Source: a virus (Duplodnaviria; Heunggongvirae; Uroviricota; Caudoviricetes). From it: a stretch of DNA of 64,000 bases. The first letter of the stretch is position 1; every line of letters begins with the position of its first letter. The notes under the pieces are model-generated. The model had not been told where the DNA came from. It saw only the letters and a program-made list of their open reading frames with translations, and searched no databases. The position numbers and the translations under genes are program-made. Below, one piece after another: positions 17,916 through 60,594 of the stretch. The DNA lies in IMG/VR virus record IMGVR_UViG_3300025735_000005. One strand, given 5' to 3'.

Positions 17916-20900
17916 TTACCCTACACCGTACCAACCATAGTTATTTTCAAAGTCATACGGTACTTCTTCAAGCACTTGCTCTTGTGTTAGGATATCGTCT
18001 TCTGTAAGTACCTTACCACCAATCACAGACCTTCCTGCGACAGGCACTAGCCCTTTATCAATAGCGTCATTCAACAGCTGATCATAAATATCTTGAGGCA
18101 GACCTCTGTTTTTCATCTCATCCAGCGTCATAATGATAGGATTTTTATCCATAACCTTAGCGTAGATTTGGCGAAGAGCAGATCTGCCAGGAAGCATATC
18201 GGCAATATTAGTAAAGAAAGCGTCATGTACAGTGGAGGTAGCTACATTGTTAGCTTTACCCCAAAGATGAAACCGCTTAACAATGACAGCATCATTTGAA
18301 TGGTTTGCATTAACACCAAAAGCAGTGCCGGCTTTGATGGGATTAGCGATGTCATTGATAGTGCCCGACTTATTAAGTACTTGATCCCACCAGCTCGCTG
18401 CTGTCTTTTGTGGAATCATAAGGATATTAGTTTGCCAATTACCATCTTTATCTTTGTAAACTAAACGTTCTTCAAATGTTTGCGTGAAGGACTGATTGAT
18501 TACCTTTCCATCAAAGTTGACAGAGGGTACATAAGTCCAGCTCTTCGGCAAATCATTCATGTTGGTGTACAGTAGCGTGATTTCAGAAGCCTTTTCAACA
18601 TCCTTGAAACCAGTCACACCAAACTTTGAGGCGATATCTGCGATTGGTACGCCACCAACGCTAAGATCTAGCTTAAACAACTTTCGTCCTAGGGCACGTT
18701 CGCCTGGCTTTTCAACACCAAGGATTAGGTCTGCTAACCCACTTTCAGGCTTCCAATCAGTAAAGACCCGCTGCAGCAGTTCTGCTGTAACAGTGGTGTT
18801 TGGTGGAAGCCCTAAGTAACGCGCAAGCTCTTTACCGATAGGACCACGTCCTGGGCCTTTACGTTCACGCCCTGTCAGTGCGTATGAGGCAATTTTCTTC
18901 CAATTCAAACTGCTGTCTGATGGCTTGGCATTTGCTAGAAAGGCTTGAGCCATGCGTCTGAAGAAGGGACTAAACTCCTTTAGGATAGGCACTTGCTCAT
19001 TCAGATGGTCTGACATGATTCGGGCTACAGCTTCGAAGTCTTTAGGCGTCACGATTTCATCATACGCTTGAGACATCTTCTCTACTAGCTCGCGTGTTTT
19101 AGGCTCCAGGAACCAGAGTTCTGCCATGATTTCGTCGCCAGGTTGCTGACCTTTATTGAAGACATCTACAATATCCTTACGTAATTCGGCAAGCATGTCA
19201 GCGCCTTCTGGATCGTATCGAAGCAGACGTGCCCTCCTGGCATCAATCTCATTCAATACGGTCTGACGTTCTCCGGATGTAACCACAAGAGTATTATCAC
19301 GTTTACCGAGTACCTTACCAAGCTTTCCTTCTACATTCATGATGCCAGTTCTTTCACCAGCGCCGTAAAAGGTCACCATATTTTGGGCTTTAGCTGCTTT
19401 TTGCAGATCTTTAAGCTTCAACCCCAATCGTTCATTTAGGGTCTTAAAGCGAGGATCATTATAAGTAGCTGCAGCAATTTCGTCGTATAGACGTCGCTTT
19501 TGGCTAGTCGGAACCACGTTAGACAGTGACGCCAGTGCTCTGTTTCTAGTTGTAAGTGCAATAATCTGGGCACCCGACGATGATGCGTCCTGCTCCATAG
19601 CAAGGCCAGTCATTAGGTTATCTAGCGTTCCGCCACTTGTTACATGGTTCTCTATTTTAGCTGCTTCAATTGCAAAACGAAAGAACTTACCTAGCTCTTC
19701 ACCTTCAACTTCGGCAACAATATCGCTTTCTAGGATTGCCCTAATATCTGCAGGCCTAGCAGACAACATCTGTTTACCAATGTTTACAAGATCTGGCCAC
19801 CACTTCTCAGCGATGCGTTGCCTACCTCTGAACGTCAGACTATCATAATTACCCTCAAAGAAATCAGCTAGACCACCTAGAAAGCTTCCTATCTGATCTG
19901 TGAAGGCATCATACCCTGCTTTTCCCATTGGTTTTAGTGCAGCTGTGTTGAGGAAAGGGCGAAAGCTTTCACCACTCTGCGCTGAGATATAGCCACGATC
20001 GTAGACACGACCACGGTGGTCTACAAACGGCAGATTAGTGAACGTTTTACCGCGCAGCCATTGCATTGCTTTAAAACGTTCATAAGCATCGCCGCGAGAG
20101 GTAATATACTTACGATAATGATTAAGATCGTCATACTTCTTTGAATTACCTCTATCATCCTTAAAGTATAGAAGCTTTTCAATGAAGTTATGGAAATCTG
20201 AATCAACTGTGTACGCGGCTTTACCAGCCCAATTGAGGGCATCAGCCAAATCTTTATCTACAAAGTCACGAGTAACTTCTGAAGAAGTAATTGACTGGCG
20301 AGTGTTGTACCAGAGGCCGTTTCTTTTAGTGTAGTATGTGGTATAGCCAGGGCGAATCACCAGACCATTGTCAAAGGTGGCCGGAATACGCATACCAACT
20401 TCAATTTTACGCTCCAAAAGGCCATACTCGATTAGCCGAGGATCCAGCAGCCGGATGTAGTAAGAGACAGTATCATAGTACGGACCGAAGTATCTACCAG
20501 AGACGCTAGAACGCATTCTACGCTTTTGAACACCGAATGTATCAATGTCAAACAAATGTCCGGCCTTGCGCTCCAACAGCTTAACACCCAGCTCGTACCA
20601 ATCGCGACGATTGCCATTAAGATTTGCTGTATTATAAAGGCTTCTGCCTAGGTAAACAGCCAGAGCATCTCTATCGCTGCCCTCTCGAACCAATCTATGA
20701 GCAAACTGCTGATAAAATGATTGAAGCTGCGCATCAGATAGACGACGCTTGATCTTCAGTGGAATGCCGGGATCGAAGAAGCCTCGCAGCTCGTTTGCAA
20801 TTGTAGGAGCAACACGGTCTTCCCACTTGTTACGTGCAACAATATTATCAACTAGCCCTTTTTGGAGTTCATCAAGCTGAGTTCGACCTAGAACAGGGTC

Positions 20901-22571
20901 AATATACTCATCTTCCAGAAGCTTCTTAAGAACATCTTTATCACGGCGCAGCTGTGTTTCGATAGCATCCGAGATATTCATTACATCGAATTTCATCTGG
21001 CTATTTAAAACAGCTTTAAGGTTGCCCCAGGGCTGCCCATTCTGCCGAAAGCGGCCAATGACAATACGAAGGTTATCAGCAATAACAGAGCGCTCATTCA
21101 TACCCATCTTCATTGACAGGTCATCCATGACTTGCTTAATAAAAGCTTTATCTTGGTCTTTTAGAAGATCACTGTCATCCACACGGCGCAAGGCACCTGC
21201 GTAGACATCGCCGTTAGGCTGATAAATACGAACGTCATCGTATCTCTGTGTTAGAGGATTGAAGCGAAGCTGTTCTTCCTTTGGCGGTGTTGAAAGAACT
21301 CTATTGCGAGTCAATCGCTTATTACCAAGGTTGATACCACGGTAGGAAGTAAACGAAAGATTACCGTTGAGGTCACCTGCTTGAAGGAGGTAGTAATCTA
21401 CCAGCGTCTTGCGGATATCCTGCAGCTCCTCAGGTCTAGCAGCACCGAGTTGCATCGCGTCCAGACGTTGTTTTGCATCAGCAAATTTACGAGTATCACC
21501 AGGTACTACGTAATCGGCATCAGTAAGCTGTCGAAGCTCCTTAATACCAATATTATTACCCTTAGCATTAGTGAATTGGTCAACGGTCAATTCACCACTA
21601 TTCAACATCTCAACTTTCTTATACTCGCCAAGATGCCTCAATTGAACAGCTACGGGTTGCCTTTTGAGCCAGTCATTGTAGCTTTCCCGTAACGGCGTCT
21701 GACCATCGTAGAACTTTTTCTGTGCTTCTGTGAGCCCTTGTAGGTTTCTCCTACGGACTTCTGCGACGCTTTCCAGATTCGCGACATCTGACCAACTTTT
21801 GAAGACAGGTATGGAAGTAGAGCGACAATTCCAATGAGCTGGAGGAAGATGCTCCACATCACCGACCGGGTAGATTGTTCCATCACGATGGGCACACAAG
21901 GGAGTAGTACGGCTGTCCAAAACAGCAACGTATTGCCAACCTTGGATTGCTTTTTCGTTAGCTTTATAGACTTCATGATCAGCCTGATTATGGACAGACG
22001 TGATTGACGTTGTTACCAGCGTCTGTGATTGTTGCTTTGTAATGCTGTGAAGGTTGCCTTTACGAACAGCCAGAGCAATGTCTTGCATGCTATCACCATT
22101 AGCGATGCCACGGCGAATGATTTGCTCAATACGCTTGCGTTCATTTACAGAGACGCCCAACCAGCCTTGCTCTAGAGTCTTATCTGCGTAAAGAGGACGT
22201 TCAAGTACAACTTCTTCAGCCACACGTCTAGTCGGCCTCTGTGTGCGCCAAATCTTGCCCATCACGTTTTCTACGTTTTGATAAGCAAACGATACTTGGT
22301 CATTGAATAGATCTAAAAGCGAGCGACGCATGGTAGAATGGACTTCAGTAAAGGTATCCTGTAGCTCCTGATCTACAGCCTCTCTAAGACGTGCTAAGCC
22401 TTTGTCACTTTTCTCTGCGTCTACTACAAGCTTATCCAGACGAACAGCGTGGCCGTCAAGTACCAGTTCTACTTTACCCTGGACACGTCGTTCGTATAAG
22501 CGGATCATAGCCGCTCTATCAATAACCTTGTCATAAAGTTCAGTATTAGCATTGACGGCCTTCATTATCAT
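17916..22571 (-). CDS. fusion protein: N-terminal Mu F / SPP1 gp7-like head morphogenesis domain + C-terminal T7-like single-subunit DNA-dependent RNA polymerase (1551 aa)
   Basis: N-terminal region carries the Phage_Mu_F signature (WQYVAVLDSRTTPLCAHRDGTIYPVGDVEHLPPAHWNCRST). C-terminal region carries ssRNAP motifs: motif A AMEQDASSSGAQIIA (cf T7 DGSCSGIQHF, Asp537), motif B region MVTFYGAGERTG (cf MTLAYGSKEFG), motif C STVHDAFFTNIAD (cf HDSFGT, His811/Asp812). Confidence 0.85.
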   Translation of the reverse strand: MIMKAVNANTELYDKVIDRAAMIRLYERRVQGKVELVLDGHAVRLDKLVVDAEKSDKGLARLREAVDQELQDTFTEVHSTMRRSLLDLFNDQVSFAYQNVENVMGKIWRTQRPTRRVAEEVVLERPLYADKTLEQGWLGVSVNERKRIEQIIRRGIANGDSMQDIALAVRKGNLHSITKQQSQTLVTTSITSVHNQADHEVYKANEKAIQGWQYVAVLDSRTTPLCAHRDGTIYPVGDVEHLPPAHWNCRSTSIPVFKSWSDVANLESVAEVRRRNLQGLTEAQKKFYDGQTPLRESYNDWLKRQPVAVQLRHLGEYKKVEMLNSGELTVDQFTNAKGNNIGIKELRQLTDADYVVPGDTRKFADAKQRLDAMQLGAARPEELQDIRKTLVDYYLLQAGDLNGNLSFTSYRGINLGNKRLTRNRVLSTPPKEEQLRFNPLTQRYDDVRIYQPNGDVYAGALRRVDDSDLLKDQDKAFIKQVMDDLSMKMGMNERSVIADNLRIVIGRFRQNGQPWGNLKAVLNSQMKFDVMNISDAIETQLRRDKDVLKKLLEDEYIDPVLGRTQLDELQKGLVDNIVARNKWEDRVAPTIANELRGFFDPGIPLKIKRRLSDAQLQSFYQQFAHRLVREGSDRDALAVYLGRSLYNTANLNGNRRDWYELGVKLLERKAGHLFDIDTFGVQKRRMRSSVSGRYFGPYYDTVSYYIRLLDPRLIEYGLLERKIEVGMRIPATFDNGLVIRPGYTTYYTKRNGLWYNTRQSITSSEVTRDFVDKDLADALNWAGKAAYTVDSDFHNFIEKLLYFKDDRGNSKKYDDLNHYRKYITSRGDAYERFKAMQWLRGKTFTNLPFVDHRGRVYDRGYISAQSGESFRPFLNTAALKPMGKAGYDAFTDQIGSFLGGLADFFEGNYDSLTFRGRQRIAEKWWPDLVNIGKQMLSARPADIRAILESDIVAEVEGEELGKFFRFAIEAAKIENHVTSGGTLDNLMTGLAMEQDASSSGAQIIALTTRNRALASLSNVVPTSQKRRLYDEIAAATYNDPRFKTLNERLGLKLKDLQKAAKAQNMVTFYGAGERTGIMNVEGKLGKVLGKRDNTLVVTSGERQTVLNEIDARRARLLRYDPEGADMLAELRKDIVDVFNKGQQPGDEIMAELWFLEPKTRELVEKMSQAYDEIVTPKDFEAVARIMSDHLNEQVPILKEFSPFFRRMAQAFLANAKPSDSSLNWKKIASYALTGRERKGPGRGPIGKELARYLGLPPNTTVTAELLQRVFTDWKPESGLADLILGVEKPGERALGRKLFKLDLSVGGVPIADIASKFGVTGFKDVEKASEITLLYTNMNDLPKSWTYVPSVNFDGKVINQSFTQTFEERLVYKDKDGNWQTNILMIPQKTAASWWDQVLNKSGTINDIANPIKAGTAFGVNANHSNDAVIVKRFHLWGKANNVATSTVHDAFFTNIADMLPGRSALRQIYAKVMDKNPIIMTLDEMKNRGLPQDIYDQLLNDAIDKGLVPVAGRSVIGGKVLTEDDILTQEQVLEEVPYDFENNYGWYGVG

Positions 22572-23285: not shown

Positions 23286-24923
23286 TTATGCCTTTAATTT
23301 TGCCTTCATCTGCTGGGCAAAGTTGGATTGCTGGGCTGCATGCTGCTCACGAGCAGATACAACAGTCTCGTCTGCATTGATCTCCTTCTGAGCTTCGTCA
23401 TCATCAAAGTCAGGAGGAAGCATATCATTTTGCTTGAGGATAAGAAGCCAAGCACTACGAGGGATAAGCGCATTCTGATACCATTCAGTGGCCAGCCGAA
23501 GCCAGTCAGCACCTTGTGGAATTGGATTGAAATCAGAAGAAAGTTCAAATTCCATATCAGCGGGATCAATTTCAAGCGCATACCGCCAGTTAATCATAAA
23601 GCAGATAATCTGCCGTAGAGTATTTGAAACCTTAGTATTCAAAGAACCTAGTTGTGCAGTTTGAGCTGCATTACGTAACTCCAGCGCGACACCCGACTGA
23701 TTTCCAGTCTCAGGCGCCAGCATCCGAACACCCAGCTTAGCGATTTCTTCGTAGCCTGCTGCAATTGCATTCTCCATATGTTCCAAGGCATCTGCAGGCG
23801 CCTTTAGAATATCTGCCTTATCTTCAGAGTTAGGCAAATGGATCCAGCTACCTAAACCTCCTTCTACAACTTCCTCAAACTTATCATCAGACATGCTGGA
23901 AGAGAGAACCGGAGTATAAGTAGCTGCGCCGTACATCAAGTGGTTACGACGACTGATCTTATTGTAGAGGGCAATTTCCTTATCTACAATCGCAGTCAAC
24001 ATTGGCTCCTGGCCTTCAATAGAACCATTGAGAGGCCACGCGGGGATCATCGTCAGCGGCTTATCGTGAACTAACACAGGAATTGTGTCGATTAGTTTAT
24101 AAATAGGATTGTTGGTATTATTGATCTGCTTGTCACCGCCAACGTATGTGACACTGTCAGTAGCTTCGTCTACTTCAAAGACACGAATTTGGTAAGTACC
24201 AGCAGAGCTAAGCTCATGCACCCAGATAGTAGGAACCATCTTAGGGTGGAATTCGTACTGGTCCTCGTCGTAACGTTCAGTCCAACCCTTCACAACCACG
24301 CGGTCTAGGATGGTCTTACCTGCAGAGTCTGTACGAGTGCGAGTATTGATGATGCTCTCTGCCTGATAAAGCACAGGGTAGGGCTTTGCAGTGGCGTCTA
24401 CTTCTTCATCTTCAGGTACAACAGGGTAGTCAACAAACACCCATGCCGCGCTGGTCTGCACTTCCTCCCAGAGAGCTTCGTCCATAAAGGCAGTTAGAGC
24501 AGAATCGTCCTTACCAAACTCATGTAGAATCCAGTGGTATGCCTCTTTAGGAACACTATCTGGAAACTTGATAGTAGGTTGCTTACGCAGCAGACCGCCT
24601 ACGAGCGTCTTAGAGAACTGTGCAGTGATCCCAGGCAACTCTGCCTCTGCCTTATAAAAGGCATATTGACGAGCAGTCATAGACGGAGAGAAAGGAATGA
24701 GCAAATTCGTGAAGTTAACGACATCCAATGTATCATCGAAATCTTTTACGAATTGCTCACCTTTACAGACAGCCCTACTCTTTGCGCGAAGATACGAGAA
24801 GCTCTCATAAGCAGCAGAAGGATCAGCCACCGTCTTGACAGGCGTGGTTGCTGTATTAGCAACAGTAGTGGCACGAGACTTTATGGGCGCTGCCGCCAGC
24901 CTTTCGAAAGTGGCTTCATCCAT
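23286..24923 (-). CDS. portal protein
   Basis: 545-aa ORF positioned portal -> MuF-domain protein -> scaffold -> capsid exactly as in SPP1-type head modules; size typical of portals; acidic C-terminus. Confidence 0.55.
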   Translation of the reverse strand: MDEATFERLAAAPIKSRATTVANTATTPVKTVADPSAAYESFSYLRAKSRAVCKGEQFVKDFDDTLDVVNFTNLLIPFSPSMTARQYAFYKAEAELPGITAQFSKTLVGGLLRKQPTIKFPDSVPKEAYHWILHEFGKDDSALTAFMDEALWEEVQTSAAWVFVDYPVVPEDEEVDATAKPYPVLYQAESIINTRTRTDSAGKTILDRVVVKGWTERYDEDQYEFHPKMVPTIWVHELSSAGTYQIRVFEVDEATDSVTYVGGDKQINNTNNPIYKLIDTIPVLVHDKPLTMIPAWPLNGSIEGQEPMLTAIVDKEIALYNKISRRNHLMYGAATYTPVLSSSMSDDKFEEVVEGGLGSWIHLPNSEDKADILKAPADALEHMENAIAAGYEEIAKLGVRMLAPETGNQSGVALELRNAAQTAQLGSLNTKVSNTLRQIICFMINWRYALEIDPADMEFELSSDFNPIPQGADWLRLATEWYQNALIPRSAWLLILKQNDMLPPDFDDDEAQKEINADETVVSAREQHAAQQSNFAQQMKAKLKA

Positions 24924-24924
24924 T

Positions 24925-25119
24925 TTAAGCCCTCAGAGCAGCGTTAAATTCAGCGATAGTGCCCTCAAAACGTTCCTTAGAACCGAAAGCTTCTGCCACG
25001 ATAAGATCGTCTTCTACAGAAGTGATGCTCCAGTTAGAAGGGCAGCGCTCGACAAGCTTAACTTCAGGGGTGCTAAGCTCAATATCAAGAGGATTAGTAC
25101 CAATATTCAAATCAGCCAT
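24925..25119 (-). CDS. hypothetical small protein
   Basis: 64-aa ORF, coupled to neighbours. Confidence 0.3.
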   Translation of the reverse strand: MADLNIGTNPLDIELSTPEVKLVERCPSNWSITSVEDDLIVAEAFGSKERFEGTIAEFNAALRA

Positions 25120-25128
25120 TTAAATTCC

Positions 25129-25383
25129 TTATGAATCAGGTTGCATACAAGCCAGATGCCCTGGCCCACGAACCCAAATATTGTTTGCAGTTCCTACTGC
25201 TACATTTCCAGCATCAATAGAAACACCGTCTAGGGGTGTAGGCTTACTACCGCCAAAGTAGATGAAAATCGATTTATCAGAACGATTTTGCATAAGTACT
25301 TTAGTACCAGACAAAGCTGGCACCACCGTAGTGATGTCCAGCCAGTCAGAGGTGAGCCTAATGGTAGGGAAGCTGGTAGCCAT
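25129..25383 (-). CDS. hypothetical small protein
   Basis: 84-aa ORF. Confidence 0.3.
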   Translation of the reverse strand: MATSFPTIRLTSDWLDITTVVPALSGTKVLMQNRSDKSIFIYFGGSKPTPLDGVSIDAGNVAVGTANNIWVRGPGHLACMQPDS

Positions 25384-26195
25384 TAGCTAAAGCGCGAAGG
25401 ATTCTGTGTAATATCAGCTATAATAAGATCAGTGATAGTCTTAGAGCCGGCGACGGTCAGATCCCACAGCCACAGACGGCCAACAGCACCCTTAGCATCA
25501 GTGTTGTTGCCATAGGCACCAATGTACGGTGCACTGCCTGAAGGAACAACCAGGGAACCAGACCAGGTCTGCGCTGTCGAGGTATACACAAGAATACCAT
25601 CAATATACACTTTAATCTGGAAAGTGTTTGAGGTATTCGCATACATTTCAAAAGCGTAATGATGCACAAGCCCATCCGTAGGAATTACGGACTTAATATC
25701 CACCACGGCGCCGTTCATTGACAGGTAGATATTATTTGCCAGGCCGGTAGCCTTATCATAGAGCGCGCGGAGACCATACTGTGCATTAGAACCATTCGTC
25801 TGCGACCACCCAAACAGGGATGCATAGGTTGTGCCAGTGCCATTAATGGTAAACCCACTCAGCGGCACTTTCATAAAGCCACCAATAGCAAAGTGAGAGC
25901 AGGTAGATGGCAACTTCCATTCAGTACCTAGGGCAACCTGCGTAGCTGCGCCACTGATAATAAGCATCCCGCCAGACCAGGCAGGGGTTCCGGCAACAAT
26001 AGCTACGTTACCACTGCGCCTGTAATTACGCATATTAGTATTAGCAGCCACAGGAGTCGCCATCGCGGCATAGCCCCACTTGTGGTTAAAATCAAGAAGA
26101 CTAATACAGCCTGGATCGATAAGCTGATCACGGTAGAGAATACCAACATCAGTTCGACCCGTAGAAATTCCAACTTGTTCAATAATAGCAGGCAT
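25383..26195 (-). CDS. beta-rich protein, possible ConA/LamG-like lectin domain (fiber accessory / decoration?)
   Basis: 270 aa, Gly/Thr/Ser-rich beta-strand pattern; immediately downstream of the tail-fiber-like gene, ATGA-coupled. Confidence 0.3.
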   Translation of the reverse strand: MPAIIEQVGISTGRTDVGILYRDQLIDPGCISLLDFNHKWGYAAMATPVAANTNMRNYRRSGNVAIVAGTPAWSGGMLIISGAATQVALGTEWKLPSTCSHFAIGGFMKVPLSGFTINGTGTTYASLFGWSQTNGSNAQYGLRALYDKATGLANNIYLSMNGAVVDIKSVIPTDGLVHHYAFEMYANTSNTFQIKVYIDGILVYTSTAQTWSGSLVVPSGSAPYIGAYGNNTDAKGAVGRLWLWDLTVAGSKTITDLIIADITQNPSRFS

Positions 26196-27892
26196 TATTT
26201 ATCCCATCCTCTGCTCTGAACTGCAGCATACAGAGCATTAGCTTCAATTGTATTACCTGCACTGTTAGGGTGCAAGAAGTCAATTACAGTGTTATCTGAA
26301 TCTTTCACACGAAGTGAGCGTGGCGTAATACCATTTGCGATGTCAGCAAGGTCTCCAGCGGAGCCATCCCCACCATTCTGCAATGGCCCATTAAAATCTA
26401 CCCAATTATTAGGCCAACGTGCTTTGATAGCATTATTCGTGAAGTCAATAACTGCACGATTAGCAGTGCCAATTTCATCACCTTCGCCATAGAGACAAAG
26501 CGGAATCAGGAATCGTTTAGTAAGCGGTGTTTGCTGAGCAATTTGAAGTGCAATATTCTCAATAACGTCGTCTGTCTTATGCACATTATTACGAACAGGC
26601 CAGATGATTGCTAGAGCATCCTGGCGATACATAACAATACTACCAGTACCTGCGCCTAGCGGATAGAAACGGGTGCCTGCAGGTACTGTAACGTCGGTAC
26701 CACCTGCGTCTTGCGTCAGGTAGTAGACAGAATCATCGCCCGCCTTTGTAAGAGTAGCATAAGGTCCTGAAGTGCCAACACGCCCATAGATCTTCAGATT
26801 AGGAAGGCCAGGTGTAATTGGATTTTCAGTAATTACTGTAACAGTTGCAGCACCGCTTGCAGGCAGCAAATTAGAAGCCAAGGTAATATAGAACGGGCGT
26901 GCACCCACACGGGACGCAATCTGACGACCATCTTGTCCATTTACACCAAATCCATTTGCAGGCCAACCCAGGAGAACCCCAAGCTTATACCAGTAGCTAT
27001 TAGCGGCAATACCGCTAACATACGTCAAACTGTCACCACGAGCATCAATTGCACGGCTGGGGATGACAGGCACTTCTAGCGTTAGACCTGTAACGTTCCT
27101 TGCAAAGAGATTTGCAGGTGGGCCATTGCTGCGCGTTGACTTGTAAATCGCATAACCATCAGTACGAATACCAACAGCCGTATGGTTAGAACCTGCCGGA
27201 GACAGCTTAACCATTTTACCAGATGCGCGCTCGATGGAATACACCATAGTATTAGTGCCATCTGAGATTTCAGCAAGCTCGTATAGCTTATCAGCGTCGA
27301 CAGCTGCCGTTACTGTAGCAACAGGCTGTGGAGATATAATACGAAAATCAAGGTCAACTACAGCCTCACTTAAACCGCTGCGTTCATATTCATACACATC
27401 GAGTAGTGCAATAGAAACGCCATTCGCAGAAAGACCAGTAGCAATCACGGGTGCCGCAGCAGGAACTGCTTTGGTAGCGCCTGCAAGAATCCTATAATCA
27501 GCGTCGATGACAGCATATACATAGCCGCTGCGTTCATATTCCTCAGGCAGCATGGAAAGGCCTAGGGCGGCAACAACGTCAGCGCCGGAAACGATAGGTG
27601 TAGGTGTAGCCTTAGTTGCCCCAGCGAGAATCCTATAGTCAGCGTCAATAATAGCGTACGCATACCCACTACGCTCATACTCGCCCTGTGTGTCCACACC
27701 TAGCGTTGCAATTGCAGCACGCTCGTCGGCGGTCATGATTTTTGCAGTGGAAGTCTCTGTAAGAGTAGAGATAGGTGCGTTTGGCTGGACAGAGCCTTCA
27801 ACAGCGTTCTTAAGGTTAGTAAGGTTATTATCCATTTCCGAGTTAGTAAGAGGAGCTCCCTTACCAGCACGGGTTACAAGTGTAACAGCCAT
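26195..27892 (-). CDS. tail fiber / tailspike-like protein with three internal repeats and C-terminal SGNH(GDSL)-type esterase domain
   Basis: N-terminus MAVTLVTRAGKGAPLTNSEMDNNLTNL (fiber-like); three tandem ~45-aa repeats (EYERSGYAYAIIDADYRILAGATKA / EYERSGYVYAVIDADYRILAGATKA / EYERSGLSEAVVDLDFRIISPQ); C-terminal DFLHPNSAGNTIEANALYAAV resembles SGNH block V (DGxHP). Confidence 0.5.
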   Translation of the reverse strand: MAVTLVTRAGKGAPLTNSEMDNNLTNLKNAVEGSVQPNAPISTLTETSTAKIMTADERAAIATLGVDTQGEYERSGYAYAIIDADYRILAGATKATPTPIVSGADVVAALGLSMLPEEYERSGYVYAVIDADYRILAGATKAVPAAAPVIATGLSANGVSIALLDVYEYERSGLSEAVVDLDFRIISPQPVATVTAAVDADKLYELAEISDGTNTMVYSIERASGKMVKLSPAGSNHTAVGIRTDGYAIYKSTRSNGPPANLFARNVTGLTLEVPVIPSRAIDARGDSLTYVSGIAANSYWYKLGVLLGWPANGFGVNGQDGRQIASRVGARPFYITLASNLLPASGAATVTVITENPITPGLPNLKIYGRVGTSGPYATLTKAGDDSVYYLTQDAGGTDVTVPAGTRFYPLGAGTGSIVMYRQDALAIIWPVRNNVHKTDDVIENIALQIAQQTPLTKRFLIPLCLYGEGDEIGTANRAVIDFTNNAIKARWPNNWVDFNGPLQNGGDGSAGDLADIANGITPRSLRVKDSDNTVIDFLHPNSAGNTIEANALYAAVQSRGWDK

Positions 27893-28095
27893 TAGGTATA
27901 TCTCACTATAAAGTCGCTAGCAAAATAATCACCGACGACATAATTAAGGGCACCCGCCAGAATAGGTGTCGGAAACCATAGTGAGCTGTCCATCTTGACA
28001 TTCACACCATCTTGGCTTACCTTAGCAATCACAGACGGTATGGTAATGTCAACGGACACGTTAGGCCCGGTGATGGTCACATTTCTATCAGGCAT
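27892..28095 (-). CDS. hypothetical small protein
   Basis: 67-aa ORF. Confidence 0.3.
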   Translation of the reverse strand: MPDRNVTITGPNVSVDITIPSVIAKVSQDGVNVKMDSSLWFPTPILAGALNYVVGDYFASDFIVRYT

Positions 28096-28678
28096 CGGGC
28101 ACTACAGCGGTAGGACTAAACAGCATTTCAATGACGCCCCTGACCGGCTTCCATGTGTGCGCAAAGCCAGCAGTTACTTCCGTGACACGCAACTCAAAGA
28201 AGCCATAAACAGGGCTACCTACCGTAGGTTGCACAGTATAGTTTGCCCCAAGCGAGTCAGGAAATTGCACATAGATTTTGTTTAGTGTAGTTACACGCCA
28301 ATAAGGATCTTGGTCCGGCGTCGTATTGCTAGAGCGATTTACACCAGCGATAAGCTCATAGTACACAGTACCATAAGAAATCACGTCACCGGCAGTATAA
28401 CCAGTTGCGCTACTCCAGGCGCTCTTGTAAGAAGGCAGTCGTACTACTAGCTTTGACTGTACACCCGAAGGGCGAATAGCCGATGGGGTATCAGTCTGAC
28501 CTTCAACATTTAGAGCTTCCACAACAACAGCTTCGTAAACAAGCCCCTGAGAAGCATCTGCAACAAATGATAGCGTAATAGGGAATTCCAGCTGTTCGCC
28601 CATAACCATGGACCACAAGATGCTGCCACCATCGCTAATAAGATCGGACTTTACATCCGTAAGTTTGGAGCGTGCCAT
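28088..28678 (-). CDS. hypothetical protein (possibly structural)
   Basis: 196-aa ORF between terminase and fiber-like gene. Confidence 0.3.
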   Translation of the reverse strand: MARSKLTDVKSDLISDGGSILWSMVMGEQLEFPITLSFVADASQGLVYEAVVVEALNVEGQTDTPSAIRPSGVQSKLVVRLPSYKSAWSSATGYTAGDVISYGTVYYELIAGVNRSSNTTPDQDPYWRVTTLNKIYVQFPDSLGANYTVQPTVGSPVYGFFELRVTEVTAGFAHTWKPVRGVIEMLFSPTAVVPDA

Positions 28679-28687
28679 TAGGCCTCC

Positions 28688-28975
28688 TTAAAGTGGTAGA
28701 GATAATTGACGATGTTTAAGGCTTTCTAGATAATTATACACCAACTCAAAAAGAAGTTGTACAATTGGCGCCGACACCTTTATAGTACGCCCGTTTGCCA
28801 ATCGCAGTGTATGATTCCAGCTAGCATCCTTCCCGTAGCATGCAATAGTGGCCATGCAAAGGTCTATGAGACCATCTTTGTTAATAGACAGCGGCCCATA
28901 AGGGCTGTCGTAAATCCCCTCTGGATTTTCTTCCAGAAGCGCGCTGATCTTTTGCACGTTATCACCTCCGTTCAA
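28688..28975 (-). CDS. hypothetical protein
   Basis: 95-aa ORF. Confidence 0.3.
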   Translation of the reverse strand: MNGGDNVQKISALLEENPEGIYDSPYGPLSINKDGLIDLCMATIACYGKDASWNHTLRLANGRTIKVSAPIVQLLFELVYNYLESLKHRQLSLPL

Positions 28976-29279
28976 TACGTTCGGAGATCTTATCCAGTTT
29001 AATGTTGAAGTCCGAGAAGATCTCCTTCAGCTCGACCTTCGTAACATACTGCTTTGCTAGGAGAAGCTCCAGGTTACCTACACGATCGAGACGATTGAGC
29101 AGTTCCCTATGCTTCTCATCAATGTCTGACTTAGGCATATAAGTCTCTGTCACCCTCAATTTAAAGGCATCAAAGTCCTTTCTATGCTCCTTACTATCAG
29201 CCCAAATGGTTTTCATCCACCAGCCGCCTGCGGTCGCAACCAGAGACAGTACAGCTAGCAGGATTTGCTCAGTGCTCAT
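28962..29279 (-). CDS. membrane-anchored coiled-coil protein (N-terminal TM helix; i-spanin-like topology)
   Basis: 105 aa: hydrophobic ILLAVLSLVATAGGWWM followed by charged coiled-coil segment. Confidence 0.3.
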   Translation of the reverse strand: MSTEQILLAVLSLVATAGGWWMKTIWADSKEHRKDFDAFKLRVTETYMPKSDIDEKHRELLNRLDRVGNLELLLAKQYVTKVELKEIFSDFNIKLDKISERIERR

Positions 29280-29782
29280 TAGAAGTTGAACCCTCTTGCC
29301 GTTGCCTTGCGTGCTACCCTGATTGGGTGTAGATACTCTGTAGCGTAACGAACGCCATCAGAGAAGTGTTCTACACCATCCTTCTTGTCGATGGTGGCAG
29401 TATTGGGGTTATTATCCACCCACTTAGTCCGCTCCATAGAGAGGATAAGGTTAGGACACTTAATAGGATCAAATAGCATACCTCCATGATGAAGCATGCC
29501 GTTGACAGCATTGACGCTGTCCACCATGGATGGTGCTTTATTGTGTGCCAAGCAGCGAATACCATGGCTTTCCAGAATGGCAAAGTCAGTACGCCCAACC
29601 ATAGCAGAAGTCTTGCGAGCTCTACCAGAAGGGTCTGGATAAGCAAAGATACGCCGCTTGCCGTTGTCGTAGCGCCCTTTGATTGCTACAGCCAACTGTT
29701 CTGTATCAGGATGTCCCATGAACTCATCAAGCCATTGCATCTGTTTGCCGCGATGCGCAAAGACACCAGAGGCTTGTATCAA
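29279..29782 (-). CDS. terminase large subunit, C-terminal nuclease portion (second exon/fragment)
   Basis: 167-aa ORF (track start is TTG; first ATG gives MQWLDEF... at ~29740) with RNase-H-like terminase nuclease features (IFAYPDPSG..., ILESHG, DGVEHFSDGVRYATEY); in-frame stop at 29801-29803 limits exon to <=29800. Confidence 0.55.
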   Translation of the reverse strand: MIQASGVFAHRGKQMQWLDEFMGHPDTEQLAVAIKGRYDNGKRRIFAYPDPSGRARKTSAMVGRTDFAILESHGIRCLAHNKAPSMVDSVNAVNGMLHHGGMLFDPIKCPNLILSMERTKWVDNNPNTATIDKKDGVEHFSDGVRYATEYLHPIRVARKATARGFNF

Positions 29783-30367
29783 ATTGTTCAGTAGATGGCG
29801 TTAACATCTACCCGACTATTGGAGAAGATATGTAGCAGCTTGTGCTAGATTATAGATACTGTCTTTAAAAGCCCCTAATCCTGTGTTGCAGTGTCCACAT
29901 AAAATACCACGGATGGTACCAGTTGTATGACAATGATCAACAACAGCAGCGTCGCCTGTATTATCCTGCCGACCTGCTCTAAAATGTACAGGATTACGAC
30001 ATATTGCGCAGCAACCGTCTTGCTGTTCTAAAATTGCATCGCGTTCATGAAGCTCTATCCCAAATTTACGGCGATAGTACCACTCAGCTTGCTTTTCCTT
30101 AGCGCATTGCTTGCAATAAGTCTGTCGGCCATCAGCACGTCTAGCGTGAGGGCCGAAATATTCGTAAGGCTTTTTAATTTTACAGTAAGTACAAATTTTC
30201 AATTTATATCTCCAAAGTCCGCTATATGTTACCATATAGATCAGACTATATCATCAGTTGCCTTTAGTGACTATTTCTCAAGTCCAGCACTGCCTGGCGC
30301 TTCCGTTACACTTGTAACGTACTCCCCTGCGGGATAGTCGTTGCACCTTCCTCTTACGAGGCTTGGC
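29783..30367 (-). mobile_element. intervening sequence splitting terminase large subunit (candidate group I intron carrying HNH ORF)
   Basis: Terminase ATPase ORF stops at 30368 and nuclease ORF resumes by 29800; the 585 nt between contain the HNH ORF flanked by hairpin-rich non-coding sequence (e.g. tcccgcagggga, cgttacaagtgtaacg). Confidence 0.45.
29816..30235 (-). CDS. HNH homing endonuclease
   Basis: 139 aa with CxxC...CxxC zinc knuckles and AVVDHCHTTGTIRGILCGHCN (HNH core). Confidence 0.8.
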   Translation of the reverse strand: MVTYSGLWRYKLKICTYCKIKKPYEYFGPHARRADGRQTYCKQCAKEKQAEWYYRRKFGIELHERDAILEQQDGCCAICRNPVHFRAGRQDNTGDAAVVDHCHTTGTIRGILCGHCNTGLGAFKDSIYNLAQAATYLLQ

Positions 30368-31288
30368 TCAGAGTTGTCCCATAAGGATATTCTCTGAATT
30401 CACCAGGTTTAGTATGTGGGCATACAGTTCACCCACGTTAAAGTCGATAGCTACATGCACATCCTCGTGTTCTCCCAGAGGCTCTAGCGTCTTGTTATGC
30501 TTAGCGCGTTCATAGGAGTAGAACACCATATTACCAGAGTCCATGAAGGACGCCATATATTCCGCAGCAAAGGCCCGTGGATCCATAGTACTCTTCAGCG
30601 CTACGATTTCTTCTGGGTCTAGAAAAGGAGAACCAGTATAGTCATAATGATAAGAGTTCCAGGTAGGGTCTTTCTCGTGGAAATGATGAAGCTCATGAAA
30701 GAAATCATAGCCATTAGGTGTAGAAGCAAAGACAGCACGACCAGGACTTCTAGCACCATAGCGACGTGCGTTTGCAGGAGACCAGCGGGTGCTGATGCAG
30801 GGTCGTACAATAGACTCCCAAGCAGCTTTTGCGCCAATACCCTTAGTGCAGGTGGTGACTTCGTCCCAGCCAACGAAATAATAGCCCTTACCGCGCATAC
30901 GCTGTACTGCTTCAAAAGACAGCAGGCGAAGTTCTACATTATTTGGGAGGACAAAGCGGCCTTCATCTTGGCTCGCCTTAATGGCAATTTCTTCCAGCCC
31001 CATATCCTGAGCCAGGATAGGGTAAAAGATGTCTGTAACCTGATCGTATGTCGGGGCAATAATACCTACACGTTTGTTAGGAACGTTTCTAGGTAACGCC
31101 ATAAGCTCATGCACTGCAGTTGCAGCACAGGCAGAGAGGAAGTATGATTTACCCCAGCCACGAGCACAGCATACAGACACAAAGCGGTGAGCTTGATCAA
31201 TAAAGAGATCTTCGTAAGCATCGCTCTGCCCGTAGTGGAGATCAATCACACCTGCAACTCCAAAGGGCAAGCTTCTTGGCCAGTACAA
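30368..31288 (-). CDS. terminase large subunit, N-terminal ATPase portion (first exon/fragment)
   Basis: 306 aa with Walker A CARGWGKS and Walker B YYFVGWDEV; ends with VAIDFNVGE resembling the first catalytic-Asp strand of the nuclease domain, then stops. Confidence 0.8.
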   Translation of the reverse strand: MYWPRSLPFGVAGVIDLHYGQSDAYEDLFIDQAHRFVSVCCARGWGKSYFLSACAATAVHELMALPRNVPNKRVGIIAPTYDQVTDIFYPILAQDMGLEEIAIKASQDEGRFVLPNNVELRLLSFEAVQRMRGKGYYFVGWDEVTTCTKGIGAKAAWESIVRPCISTRWSPANARRYGARSPGRAVFASTPNGYDFFHELHHFHEKDPTWNSYHYDYTGSPFLDPEEIVALKSTMDPRAFAAEYMASFMDSGNMVFYSYERAKHNKTLEPLGEHEDVHVAIDFNVGELYAHILNLVNSENILMGQL

Positions 31289-31540: not shown

Positions 31541-31836
31541 ACAGGGATCCTTGCCAGCGCAAGAGCCAGTGTGCGACAGGCGGATGGCGGAAGAGGAAGC
31601 TGCACAGTGATGCCTTCACCACGAACAGTAGCTGTAATAGCACCCTCATCATCTTCATTTACAGAGATATAGTCAGGGCATGATGTATTGGACATATCAG
31701 TCCAAGCTGCGAGATTCTTCATCAACAGTATTCCCATCAGTGTGATAAACTTCACCCTTTTTACGGGTGTTGATAATAAGCGGCGGAATAGAAGCCGTTT
31801 CCAGCACATTAGTTTCAGGTACACGACCATAGCCAT
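31537..31836 (-). CDS. hypothetical protein
   Basis: 99-aa ORF upstream of terminase. Confidence 0.3.
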   Translation of the reverse strand: MAMVVYLKLMCWKRLLFRRLLSTPVKRVKFITLMGILLMKNLAAWTDMSNTSCPDYISVNEDDEGAITATVRGEGITVQLPLPPSACRTLALALARIPV

Positions 31837-32143
31837 AACGCAACAGCTGTTCTGCGATCTTAATCTTTTGTTCAGTAAGCTTGATATAAAGCTCTGGCTT
31901 CCAGATGATCACACGACCAGTGTTGGGATTGAGTTCTACAGTAACACCATCACGAAGATCCTCTTCGCGCTTAATAGCGGCGGACAGTCGATGATGCTCA
32001 GTAACCAATTCACCAATGGGGTCATAACGAAGTTGTCTCAGTCGATCCTTAGAGCGCTCAGATCCTGCGTGGTAGCGACGTCCATCATAGAGTTCACCAT
32101 CACGAACAGGAGGCTGCTCAATGACTGCATTCTTAAGTGACAT
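31697..32143 (-). CDS. candidate terminase small subunit
   Basis: 148-aa ORF that is first gene after promoter motif/terminator junction and lies upstream of terminase large subunit; no diagnostic motif. Confidence 0.3.
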   Translation of the reverse strand: MSLKNAVIEQPPVRDGELYDGRRYHAGSERSKDRLRQLRYDPIGELVTEHHRLSAAIKREEDLRDGVTVELNPNTGRVIIWKPELYIKLTEQKIKIAEQLLRYGYGRVPETNVLETASIPPLIINTRKKGEVYHTDGNTVDEESRSLD

Positions 32144-39197: not shown

Positions 39198-40559
39198 TTA
39201 GAAATCCTTTGCACGATTGCGGACTTCATCGAAAGTATGCTTAACAAGCAGTTCGCCATCTCGCCACACAGGCTGCATGAGATCAACAGCATGATGCGAG
39301 AGATGATCAGTGCGAATAGCACGATATTGACCGTCGTATTCGATAACAGATTGGCGGCCAGCCTTGCTTGCCTTTTGGATGCTGCCAGTAGGCGTCTTCT
39401 GAACATCCCGCCAGCCATCGCCGTAATTAACAGCATTCATCTTCATGGCAAAGCTGAGTGTATCGCGATCGACTTTCTGAAGAAGACCACCGCCCATGCC
39501 AAATACGATATTATCCAGCGAGAAGCCGGCATGAATGATATTGCGGATAAGTTCCTCAATAGAATCCTCATTCATACCATCGCCTTGAATAACACGTACG
39601 TGCGAGTCCAGAACACGGTATCCCTTACTGTTTACAGTACCACCAAAAGCTTCCCACAACTTGTGCATGATATCGATCGATACCGTCGTAGGGTTGCCGC
39701 TATCAGGCCGAACAACAAGAGTGCCATTGCGTTCAAGAATCTCTTCCTTGAGACTATAGCACCAAGCCTTACGTACGGCACGTTCCAGGTCATAGCTATC
39801 CGAAACGATCGATACAAGACCATCAGGAAAACTCTTGAGAATGTGATGATACGCATTGTATTCGCGTTCACGTCCCCAGCTAGTAATAGTGCTGTGCTCG
39901 GCCGCAGGGATATTGAAGCCGGGCATACCAGCCTTGTAATAGTGCTGCGCATGGAGAATGCCAGCGAGGGTATCCGTGCTGCTGAAATTTAGCAAATGCG
40001 CCATGCCACCCAGAGCAGCGCTTTCCCGGCTGCTGGCACCACGAGCACCCATATCGTGCAGTTTGAATTCGATCTGGCCGTCAGGGTCATCACTGCTGAT
40101 CAACAGACCGCGATAAATGATCTTACGGCATTTTGCCGACAGCGTAGCAACCGTAGAAGGATACCATGTTGTGCGCGTCAAATCCGTGTCGATGAAGTTA
40201 GGCAGCCACGGGAAGCGTGGATCTGTGTTGACAACCTCAAATAGCGGTGTACCACAAGGAACTGCAATCCCTTCAGGCAAGGCGCGGATTTCCAGTGGTA
40301 GATAGCCCAGATTTTCCAGATCACGAAAGCCCTTATCATTAAAAGGGATGCCGTGGGCCGCGAGCACATCTGCGCATTCTTCGATCATATCAAGGTCTGG
40401 CGCATCCATACTGTCCATCAACGTAGGTTGCAGACCAAAGAAGATCATGCGATGGCTGAAATTGTTGATGCGTGCCTCGCCGTAGACAGAAGCGTACTTC
40501 ATTTCCGGCGGATACTGCATAAAGTGCGAGTGCTTATAGCTATCAACATCAAAAATCAT
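39198..40559 (-). CDS. nadV: nicotinamide phosphoribosyltransferase (NAMPT/NadV)
   Basis: Start taken at internal ATG (MIFDVDSYKHSHFMQYPP, cf human NAMPT ATDSYKVTHYKQYPP); FGMGGGLLQKVDRDT matches NAMPT GSGGGLLQK block; length ~453 aa. Confidence 0.8.
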   Translation of the reverse strand: MIFDVDSYKHSHFMQYPPEMKYASVYGEARINNFSHRMIFFGLQPTLMDSMDAPDLDMIEECADVLAAHGIPFNDKGFRDLENLGYLPLEIRALPEGIAVPCGTPLFEVVNTDPRFPWLPNFIDTDLTRTTWYPSTVATLSAKCRKIIYRGLLISSDDPDGQIEFKLHDMGARGASSRESAALGGMAHLLNFSSTDTLAGILHAQHYYKAGMPGFNIPAAEHSTITSWGREREYNAYHHILKSFPDGLVSIVSDSYDLERAVRKAWCYSLKEEILERNGTLVVRPDSGNPTTVSIDIMHKLWEAFGGTVNSKGYRVLDSHVRVIQGDGMNEDSIEELIRNIIHAGFSLDNIVFGMGGGLLQKVDRDTLSFAMKMNAVNYGDGWRDVQKTPTGSIQKASKAGRQSVIEYDGQYRAIRTDHLSHHAVDLMQPVWRDGELLVKHTFDEVRNRAKDF

Positions 40560-40560
40560 T

Positions 40561-41544
40561 TCAAAACCCCTTGTAAAAAGCCATGTGGTAGTGGTCTTCA
40601 AAGTATTGTGTTGGATGAACTGCGTGCTCATGCATCCAGCCAGCCCAGGATGCATCATCCTTACCCTGAGGCGCTGGCATGTCTACGTTGTCAGGAATTT
40701 CTATGTAAGCGGCATGAGTGATGATACGCCCTCGCAAGCTGCGTTCAGGATCATCAAAGATATGCCAACCAACAATGTATTGCGGATCGATGAGAAGTCC
40801 TGTCTCTTCCTCGACTTCTCTAAGCATACCTCTTTCGATACGCTCGTCAGGTTCAAGAAATCCTCCTGGCGCTGCATATAGGTTTTTACCTACAGCACCG
40901 CCGCGCTTGATAAGAAGTCTTTTGTCACGCCAGCGGATAATACCATCAACTGTGACAAAAGGACCAGTCCCATATTTAAGGCGATCCTTATCTACACCTT
41001 CCTTATAAGACAAGAGCTCCTTGAATGTATCCGTCATCTTGAAATGCTCAAGGAACGTCAAGGTATTTGGTGTGATGTAGGGAGCAGGGATATGAGGCAG
41101 ACGCCGAAGGTACACCTCACGAACATCGCTGGCGGAAAAGGTGCCGTAACTACTGCTAATCTGAATGCTTTCCCACGATGGAAACATATTCAGATAGTAG
41201 CTGGATTTGTCTTTGCCGTAGCCGGTCAGATAGATTATATCTTCAGGCTTGGAGCAAGAGCTGATGAGATTTTCAACGTTTTGCAGCCAATCCGCGTCGC
41301 TGTACGGGTAGTCATCAAGCGGAAGAACCTCCAACCGACCCAGTGCGTGCTCATAAGCAAAGGCGTTACTGATCAGCGATCGACGTTCTTCATATGTGAA
41401 AGGGTTCTTCGGATCTCGGGCTTTATTTGCAGAGCCAACAAGCACAATCAGCCTATCAACCTTTGAAAGAGCTTCCGAAATGACATGCGCGTGACCGATA
41501 TGCATCGGCTGAAAGCGCCCGATAAAAACGCCTATTTTGCTCAT
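40561..41544 (-). CDS. natV: bifunctional NMN adenylyltransferase / Nudix ADP-ribose pyrophosphatase (NatV/NadM-Nudix)
   Basis: N-terminal GRFQPMHIGH ((H/T)xGH nucleotidyltransferase motif); C-terminal Nudix box GGFLEPDERIERGMLREVEEETG. Confidence 0.8.
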   Translation of the reverse strand: MSKIGVFIGRFQPMHIGHAHVISEALSKVDRLIVLVGSANKARDPKNPFTYEERRSLISNAFAYEHALGRLEVLPLDDYPYSDADWLQNVENLISSCSKPEDIIYLTGYGKDKSSYYLNMFPSWESIQISSSYGTFSASDVREVYLRRLPHIPAPYITPNTLTFLEHFKMTDTFKELLSYKEGVDKDRLKYGTGPFVTVDGIIRWRDKRLLIKRGGAVGKNLYAAPGGFLEPDERIERGMLREVEEETGLLIDPQYIVGWHIFDDPERSLRGRIITHAAYIEIPDNVDMPAPQGKDDASWAGWMHEHAVHPTQYFEDHYHMAFYKGF

Positions 41545-42441: not shown

Positions 42442-42720
42442 CTATCTAGCTATGCTAAGGGTTAAGAGAATAAGACTTGTGAATATTACTGTGCCGAAGA
42501 CAATAGCTGTAAATTCATCGGTACCTCGTCCATTCTGAGAGCCACGTGGTCTATATTCCCACCCAGCGCGGTAATAGGTACCGTACTCTCCGTACGAGTA
42601 CCTCACCCTTCTCTCAGCCTTCCCTATAACTACACCATTCATAGTTGGCCTTGGCACAAATACAAAACAATTATGCCAACCGTCTGGTGGAGTTTTTCGC
42701 TTAAAACTGATATTCATCAA
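42442..42720 (-). CDS. small tail-anchored membrane protein
   Basis: 92 aa with C-terminal hydrophobic segment AIVFGTVIFTSLILLTLSI. Confidence 0.3.
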   Translation of the reverse strand: MMNISFKRKTPPDGWHNCFVFVPRPTMNGVVIGKAERRVRYSYGEYGTYYRAGWEYRPRGSQNGRGTDEFTAIVFGTVIFTSLILLTLSIAR

Positions 42721-60593: not shown

Positions 60594-60594
60594 A

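Follow-up and report, generated by a model that had tools for sequence, protein, structure and literature searches.

Why does a tailed phage carry genes for a fibre-like protein and a lectin-like protein between its terminase and portal genes, and what do these proteins do? This question is raised by the IMG/VR virus record IMGVR_UViG_3300025735_000005 (Caudoviricetes), of which a stretch of 64,000 nucleotides (the window) was analyzed. Two adjacent genes of this stretch encode a 565-residue protein (w565) and a 270-residue protein (w270). An earlier inspection of the letters (the original prediction) had described w565 as fibre-like protein with internal repeats and an SGNH-esterase-like C-terminus, w270 as its lectin-like neighbor and the position of both genes as odd. 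We found that w565 consists of four parts: an N-terminal fibre-anchor motif, three diverged repeats of 47-50 amino acids, a short beta-rich region resembling TolB blades, and a C-terminal SGNH hydrolase domain. On this basis, we consider it likely that w565 is a trimeric virion fibre, which deacetylates the surface polysaccharide of the host via Ser288, Asp538, and His541, and that its lectin-fold partner is either a binding subunit or an assembly factor.

The SGNH hydrolase domain

The catalytic signature of SGNH hydrolases is complete in w565 (GDS286-288, G319, N435, D538, H541). An alignment of 11 homologous sequences shows no variation at G286-D287-S288-L289, G316, G319, R434-N435, or H541 and hardly any at D538; these residues represent blocks I, II, III, and V. 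In a larger family alignment (156 sequences, w565 plus 155 family representatives), each of the 150 sequences without a gap at the position of Ser288 has serine there. N435 and H541 are present in 156 of 156 sequences each and D538 in 154 of 156. The original prediction had made its esterase assignment depend on such a signature and had recognized block V at the C-terminus, which reads D538-F-L-H541-P-N. The GDS block, which it had expected near residue ~350, does exist but is located at G286-D287-S288.

Among solved structures, only the tailspike of Salmonella phage epsilon15 (PDB 9sij, 9sim) is closely related to w565. A phmmer search with the single sequence matched 9sij with E = 3.2e-13 over query residues 303-563, and the family profile matched it with E = 1.3e-40 over chain residues 69-369, block I included. 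The homologous part is the petal domain of epsilon15 gp20 (residues 734-1070; 26% identity over 276 aligned positions), and in the family alignment Ser787, Gly813, Asn937, Asp1035, and His1038 of gp20 align with S288, G319, N435, D538, and H541. The petal domain, which combines an SGNH fold with a beta-barrel subdomain, deacetylates the 6-O-acetyl-galactose of the O-antigen, an activity that is lost in the S787A and H1038A mutants (bioRxiv 10.64898/2026.07.31.742079). Both proteins have the five catalytic and oxyanion residues in common and carry the domain at the C-terminus of a receptor-binding protein (RBP), and they probably also share a two-part build, in which a beta subdomain is inserted into an alpha/beta SGNH core.

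The fold of w565 was also predicted with AlphaFold2 (AF2). In this model, residues 200-565 reach predicted local distance difference test (pLDDT) values of 78-96 in nearly all 10-residue blocks (about 76-96 for residues 276-565), and six strands between blocks II and III (E334-416) would be compatible with the published description of the petal domain. The modelled SGNH domain has the three-layer alpha/beta/alpha, flavodoxin-like fold of the superfamily. When the model was searched with Foldseek, GDSL lipases, CE2 enzymes, acetyl-xylan esterases, and PAF-AH were matched with a probability of 1.0, but with E-values of only about 1e-4 to 1e-2. Motifs, fold search, and petal-domain homology thus bear out the proposed SGNH-esterase-like domain.

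An exhaustive profile search returned 6332 clusters at E <= 1e-3 and 1681 at E <= 1e-30 (representatives at 50% identity). In these clusters, the matched SGNH domain is nearly always C-terminal, on proteins of 270-1131 amino acids. The family is therefore very large, yet no Pfam or NCBIfam model detects w565; a distant homologue (P0011) carries PF00657. For annotation, the homology would provide a confident label (O-acetyl esterase receptor-binding fibre) for a gene that is blank in both databases, and it links w565 to a very large, uncatalogued family, of which the first biochemical characterization, that of the epsilon15 petal domain, dates only from 2026.

There are also differences to the epsilon15 protein. 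Unlike gp20, which has a beta-helix endorhamnosidase and a beta-sandwich in addition, w565 carries no beta-helix or other recognizable depolymerase domain, its shaft being built from short repeats and the TolB-like region, so that it would be an esterase only. Moreover, epsilon15 has no gene for a lectin-like partner downstream of gp20. Esterase-only SGNH fibres that deacetylate polysaccharides have been described before, namely gp63.1 of E. coli phage G7C and two fibres of Klebsiella prophages (PMC13123978). As to the working principle, w565 would resemble these proteins, since in each case a virion fibre deacetylates surface polysaccharide without cutting it. In contrast, the PDB profile search was highly significant for the epsilon15 domain only, and this points to an SGNH subfamily different from that of the G7C and Klebsiella fibres. 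SGNH-esterase RBPs are thus an established class (G7C gp63.1, Klebsiella prophage fibres, epsilon15 petal domain), in which w565 joins the petal subfamily.

Anchor motif, repeats, and TolB-like region

The N-terminus of w565 reads MAVTLVTRAGKGAPLTNSEMDNNLTNL; this sequence and the C-terminal one had been quoted correctly in the original prediction. Its description of the protein as fibre-like is in line with our profile searches, in which residues 65-563 matched PHROG 19652 (function unannotated) and overlapping parts matched the tail-fibre families 11419 and 36601.

The N-terminal anchor motif recurs in gp38 of the EBPR siphovirus, a 169-residue protein (67% identity over 27 amino acids, within the first 29 residues of w565), and on small proteins of 58-169 amino acids at the same locus of related phages (L033, L034, L041, L014). 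A weak match was also obtained with gp18 of Achromobacter phage AMA1, a tail-module protein. In the relatives, the motif (TR-x-KG-x-PLT-x-x-E-x-D-x-N) is carried by separate proteins, which are encoded ahead of a large variable protein and may be adaptors, whereas in w565 it is fused to the fibre. A comparable contrast exists between T7 gp17, in which the anchor is fused to the fibre, and the adaptor proteins of K1-5 and SP6, in which the anchor is a separate protein.

The three tandem repeats that had been reported for w565 at both the protein and the nucleotide level were recovered, with a unit of 47-50 instead of ~45 amino acids. The copies begin at residues 71, 118, and 168, which corresponds to spacings of 47 and 50 amino acids (141 and 150 nt). 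Over a 24-residue core, copies 1 and 2 share 92% protein identity but only 75% DNA identity, and copy 3 is about 46-50% identical to either of them. A repeat search at the DNA level found copies of 54-74 nt with 61-76% identity, whereas Tandem Repeats Finder failed to detect them owing to their strong divergence. A recent duplication was rejected in view of the two identity values of copies 1 and 2. The repeats are thus real, and the same values point to an old duplication that has been maintained by selection at the peptide level. The motif Y-x-R/A-S/C-G...D...R was found upstream of the SGNH domain, in one to three copies, in 25 of the 155 family representatives.

For the TolB-like region, Foldseek gave weak TolB matches, and a homologous protein (P0010) matches PF07676 and TIGR02800 in the part that aligns with this segment.

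The partner protein and the two-gene cassette

The AF2 model of w270 (predicted template modelling score, pTM, 0.80) matched ConA-like jelly-roll lectin folds in Foldseek with a probability of 1.0 and E-values down to 4e-9. Among these matches were BoNT Hcn, the lectin domain of Vibrio cholerae sialidase, legume lectins, a 269-residue chain of the cyanophage Pan3 tailspike (no paper was found on this structure), and many phage LamG virion proteins. At the sequence level, Pfam yielded a weak Laminin_G_3 match (19.2 bits), which is below the cut-off of 27.6. We conclude that w270 is predicted to be a ConA-like lectin/LamG jelly-roll beta-sandwich. The earlier description of w270 as beta-rich and lectin-like is consistent with this prediction, and it should be noted that the fold alone does not imply carbohydrate binding.

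A homologue of w270 (23-58% identity) is encoded directly downstream of the fibre homologue in seven of the seven other contexts examined. In a Mu-like phage (L004), the pair lies between the endolysin and gp27/TerL. In a contig with arc and ant genes, the phage type of which is not established (L006), it directly follows arc/ant, the spot of the P22 tailspike. It precedes the lysis genes in an unclassified contig (L009) and an amidase gene in an apparent prophage region of a bacterial contig (L011). In a P2-like Novosphingobium prophage (L010), it follows gpJ, gpI, and an H-like fibre. In a lambda-like Sphingomonas prophage (L032), it is found where stf/tfa would be, preceded by the tape measure and by two large unassigned proteins that take the place of gpJ. 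A more distant pair (L031) also consists of adjacent genes. Since the partner stands next to the fibre in every context, we regard the two genes as one cassette, which is apparently old and mobile between unrelated phage types. The lectin-fold partner accompanies this fibre subfamily in five or more backgrounds (P2-like, Mu-like, lambda-like, and Naomviridae-like phages as well as unclassified contigs), which suggests a two-component 'bind and deacetylate' module.

This arrangement resembles lambda stf/tfa, P2 H/G, and T2 gp37/gp38, in which a fibre gene is followed by a smaller, translationally coupled partner gene, and in the lambda-like and P2-like prophages the cassette even takes the fibre-partner slot. 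However, in contrast to Tfa and gp38, the partner has a 270-residue ConA/LamG lectin fold, which is not a known Tfa or gp38 fold, and searches of Pfam, PHROG, NCBIfam, and PDB indicated no sequence similarity of w270 to the Tfa/gp38 families.

The modular structure of w565 is evident when the two types of homology are compared. Homology to the fibres of other cassettes begins at about residue 71-118, with unrelated N-termini in these homologues, whereas homology to proteins of the locus comprises residues 3-45. Thus, w565 is best described as a chimera of a resident N-terminal anchor and an imported distal part. Recent horizontal transfer of the cassette was rejected: its GC content (47.5-48%) equals that of the neighboring genes, and so it is not a recent arrival, while the other carriers have 58-65% GC and are only 29-60% identical.

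The terminase-portal interval in related phages

According to the portal protein, the relatives of the window phage are the Naomviridae roseophages DSS3_VP1 and DSS3_PM1, EBPR siphovirus 1, and the Pelagibacter phage Kolga, with 43-46% identity overall and about 43% for the roseophages and EBPR siphovirus 1. DSS3_VP1 and the window phage have in common a TerL gene that is split by a group I intron with an endonuclease VII gene, a long MuF-family protein after the portal, and several metabolic genes.

Like the window phage, the Naomviridae and EBPR siphovirus 1 encode host-interaction proteins between TerL and portal, but the SGNH-lectin cassette is lacking in DSS3_VP1 and EBPR siphovirus 1. 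In DSS3_VP1, the interval contains PhoH, Dit, gp017, the virion structural protein gp018 (2576 amino acids), putative chaperones, and an endolysin, with Dit and gp017 being homologues of the two tail proteins that follow the tape measure in the window. In EBPR siphovirus 1, it contains a homologue (40% identity) of w196, the 196-residue protein encoded upstream of the fibre in the window, together with the 169-residue anchor protein, a 779-residue protein with a PcRGLX-like domain, and a 696-residue fn3 protein. Closer, uncultured relatives (portal 51-68% identical) follow a common plan of TerL, w105, one or more large variable proteins of 410-1180 amino acids, w64, and portal, and most of them have w196 and an anchor-motif protein of 58-169 amino acids after w105. 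Kolga alone has nothing between TerL and portal. The interval contents across the relatives therefore identify this interval as a hypervariable locus of the whole lineage, framed by conserved small genes, and not as an anomaly. The position between terminase and portal, which had been called odd, is correct as such (Table 1), but it is normal for this lineage.

Homologues of w196 (40-59% identity) are located at the same locus in EBPR siphovirus 1, L033, L034, and L014-L022. In L023-L029, they are encoded just downstream of the gpJ-like central fibre, among tail-fibre genes, and this neighborhood links the locus to the tail end. In all, w196 adjoins large fibre-like genes in 17 viral contigs. 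Its residues 87-112 form a weak chitin-binding-like (CBM5/12) segment (E = 0.005); no match was found for w196 in PHROG, PDB, or NCBIfam, and PDB sequence searches with w270 were equally negative.

The tail-tip genes are located after the tape measure in the window (1-2813), but between terminase and portal in DSS3_VP1 (L007 7476-10500). Within the lineage, the tail-tip module as a whole has thus been relocated.

The original prediction had offered two readings of the gene position, a head or neck fibre and a transplanted RBP cassette. The second of them is favored by the tail genes of DSS3_VP1 at this locus, the w196 homologues beside gpJ-like genes, and the tail-fibre positions of the cassette elsewhere, while no positive support was obtained for the first. 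Naomviridae-like siphoviruses have their host-range genes between terminase and portal, which aids annotation and host prediction of such environmental phages, about which little is known. In the sources consulted, three features appear to be undescribed: the fixed lectin-fold partner, the shaft of helix-hairpin repeats, and the host-recognition locus that is conserved between terminase and portal in this lineage.

Proposed function and alternative explanations

Most likely, w565 forms a homotrimeric tail side fibre, although both the trimeric state and the site of attachment are matters of inference. The first ~50 residues, the anchor of the lineage, would dock the fibre on the particle, and residues ~66-275 (three helix-hairpin repeats plus TolB-like region) would constitute its shaft. 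The C-terminal 290 residues would act as an SGNH O-acetyl esterase of the epsilon15 gp20 petal-domain family, with Ser288-Asp538-His541 as predicted catalytic triad and Gly319 and Asn435 as putative oxyanion hole. During adsorption, this esterase would strip O-acetyl groups from O-antigen, capsule, or exopolysaccharide of the host, and deacetylation would modify the receptor layer without cutting it. As fixed partner, w270 might be a fibre-bound subunit that binds carbohydrates or, alternatively, an assembly factor. According to this scenario, an old mobile cassette would have come to sit in the hypervariable host-recognition locus of the lineage, with the resident anchor motif being fused to the fibre.

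A number of observations speak against this scenario. The protein and its phage are known here from sequence alone. Searches of Pfam and NCBIfam with w565, w270, and w196 gave no significant match, and for w565 there was neither a Pfam family at E <= 1 nor an NCBIfam match at E <= 0.1, so that motifs, fold, and homology are the grounds for its assignment to the SGNH hydrolases. Residues ~1-200 of the AF2 model are unreliable (pLDDT <50), and therefore shaft and trimer are inferred. Block III of w565 reads V-R-N-N, whereas 148 of the 156 aligned sequences have G-R-N. When ten large locus proteins of the relatives were compared with PHROG and Pfam, most of them had no match, and the intended proof that all of them are fibres failed. 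The DSS3_VP1 paper does not include virion proteomics. Finally, the genes after the tape measure already comprise a canonical tail-tip module (Dit, gp017-like, gp018-like), so that the w565 fibre would be an additional one; the start of the window encodes the N-terminal 540 residues of the gp018-like protein (E = 1e-40).

Such a supernumerary fibre might be attached to head or neck, as an enzymatic whisker or collar near the portal that aids the reversible first contact with polysaccharide. Of the alternatives considered, this explanation survives best, and we judge it unlikely. It is in keeping with the location of the gene, which comes after the terminase and just before the portal, in a locus framed by small conserved genes beside the head genes, and with the complete tail-tip module elsewhere. 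However, gene position does not determine the attachment site. The cassette occupies tail-fibre positions in P2-like and lambda-like prophages, w196 homologues adjoin gpJ-like central fibre genes, the tail-tip genes of DSS3_VP1 reside at this very locus, and the weak AMA1 match of the anchor motif leads to a tail-module protein. A more general version, in which the locus encodes portal-proximal fibres and the SGNH fibre acts together with the lectin as an enzymatic collar, deacetylating and gripping host polysaccharide independently of a tail tip that, given the 3292-residue tape measure, would be at the end of an unusually long tail, is just as unlikely.

Somewhat less probable still is that w565 and w270 do not belong to the virion but are a soluble enzyme and a soluble lectin, which are released at lysis and modify the polysaccharide nearby, so as either to free the progeny or to destroy the receptors of neighboring cells. 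In most contexts the cassette adjoins lysis genes, in the Mu-like phage it is inserted between endolysin and packaging genes, and in the window phage it is located outside the canonical tail module. Tail-fibre genes, however, often adjoin lysis genes anyway, at the ends of late operons. In addition, the N-terminal anchor motif is conserved and common to locus-resident proteins, the N-terminal modules are swapped among homologues, as is typical of virion RBPs, the shaft is built from repeats, and the N-terminus of w565 has no evident signal peptide.

The least probable explanation, a catalytically dead or very weak SGNH domain that merely serves as carbohydrate-binding head, with specificity coming from the lectin-like partner or another protein, could appeal to Val433, which replaces the block III glycine in w565 only, and to epsilon15, in which the acetyl group of the bound oligosaccharide is 12 angstroms away from the serine and one groove serves both binding and catalysis (bioRxiv 10.64898/2026.07.31.742079), but residue 433 is not itself catalytic and all five catalytic and oxyanion residues are kept.

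Gene order and other features of the window

All genes of the region are located on the minus strand (Table 1). From w67 via w565 and w270 to w84, each gene overlaps the next by a single base, which for w565 and w270 is a start/stop overlap. For w67, neither a family match (Pfam, PHROG) nor a homologue in the other loci compared was found, and w84 has no homologue in the other cassette loci compared.

Table 1. Positions of w565 segments, surrounding genes, and separate anchor-motif proteins of relatives
Feature	Position	Strand	Remarks
Possible small terminase	31697-32143	-	
Large terminase, N-terminal part	30368-31288	-	
Endonuclease VII gene	29816-30235	-	Within large terminase intron
Large terminase, C-terminal part	29279-29782	-	
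w105, 105-aa membrane/coiled-coil protein	28962-29279	-	Terminase-side locus edge; PHROG 462, 12220, 7885; homologues right after TerL in L033, L036, L037
w95, 95 aa	28688-28975	-	
w196, 196-aa conserved locus protein	28088-28678	-	Weak CBM5/12-like insert; homologues at same locus
w67, 67-aa ORF	27892-28095	-	Overlaps fibre gene start
w565, 565-aa fibre/SGNH esterase gene	26195-27892	-	ORF; PHROG tail-fibre families; homologues; AF2 model
N-terminal anchor motif, about aa 1-50 (TR-AGKGAPLTNSEMDNNLTNL)	27743..27892	-	Common to locus proteins of relatives
Three diverged repeats, aa 66-191	27320..27697	-	Each short helix + beta-hairpin (low-confidence model)
PD40/TolB-blade-like beta-rich region, aa 200-275	27068..27295	-	AF2 strands 204-266, pLDDT about 80-87
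SGNH hydrolase domain, aa 276-565	26198..27067	-	Predicted inserted beta subdomain ~aa 332-420
Codon of predicted nucleophile Ser288	27029..27031	-	Aligns with epsilon15 Ser787
Codon of predicted catalytic His541	26270..26272	-	Aligns with epsilon15 His1038
w270, 270-aa partner, predicted ConA/LamG-like lectin fold	25383-26195	-	1-base overlap with fibre gene
w84, 84-aa ORF	25129-25383	-	Overlaps partner gene end; PHROG 4770 (function unknown)
w64, 64-aa protein	24925-25119	-	Portal-side locus edge; homologues directly upstream of portal in L033, L034, L036, L037, L039, L041
Portal	23286-24923	-	
MuF-family fusion protein	17916-22571	-	
Scaffold, capsid, adaptors, tail tube			Downstream of MuF fusion protein
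Tape measure, 3292 aa	2813-12691	-	
Distal tail proteins	2220-2813 and 1630-2220	-	
Separate anchor-motif proteins of relatives	L014 10127-10303; L034 3422-3616; L033 5922-6326; L041 1745-2173; L003 2344-2853		

A promoter and terminator scan was uninformative, since the counts were not above those of shuffled sequence. Megablast of the 8.5-kb region against phages gave a single match of 36 nt inside the intron of the large terminase. This match (window 30221-30256) is exact and is shared with the Pectobacterium phages phiTE and CB7, which suggests an intron core in common with these phages. The group I intron extends over 29783-30450 (core 30222-30450, minus strand; Rfam RF00028, 87.5 bits, E = 2e-22), and the endonuclease VII gene that it bears is of the homing-endonuclease type (Pfam PF02945). 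The arrangement is the same in DSS3_VP1, whereas the closer uncultured relatives have an unsplit TerL of 441 amino acids.

Genes for nicotinamide phosphoribosyltransferase, a conserved 658-residue protein (PHROG 1735), ribonucleotide reductase, and primase/helicase are located at 39198-40658, 42717-44693, and 58815-62319 of the window. Since DSS3_VP1 has the same kinds of metabolic genes, the window phage may belong to or be near the deoxyuridine-DNA (dU-DNA) Naomviridae.

The MuF fusion protein comprises 1551 amino acids, with a MuF head-morphogenesis domain at its N-terminus (PF04233, 60.5 bits) and a single-subunit RNA polymerase region at its C-terminus (PF00940, 25.5 bits; PHROG 414, E = 6e-16). 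This fusion may represent an RNA polymerase that is packaged in the capsid and injected. A homologue of 1548 amino acids (65% identity) is present in L034, and DSS3_VP1 has a 'head morphogenesis' protein of 1463 amino acids at the same place. The tape measure protein is twice as long as that of DSS3_VP1 (3292 vs. 1655 amino acids), and this size implies an exceptionally long tail, for which the usual length rule, if applicable, gives about half a micrometre.

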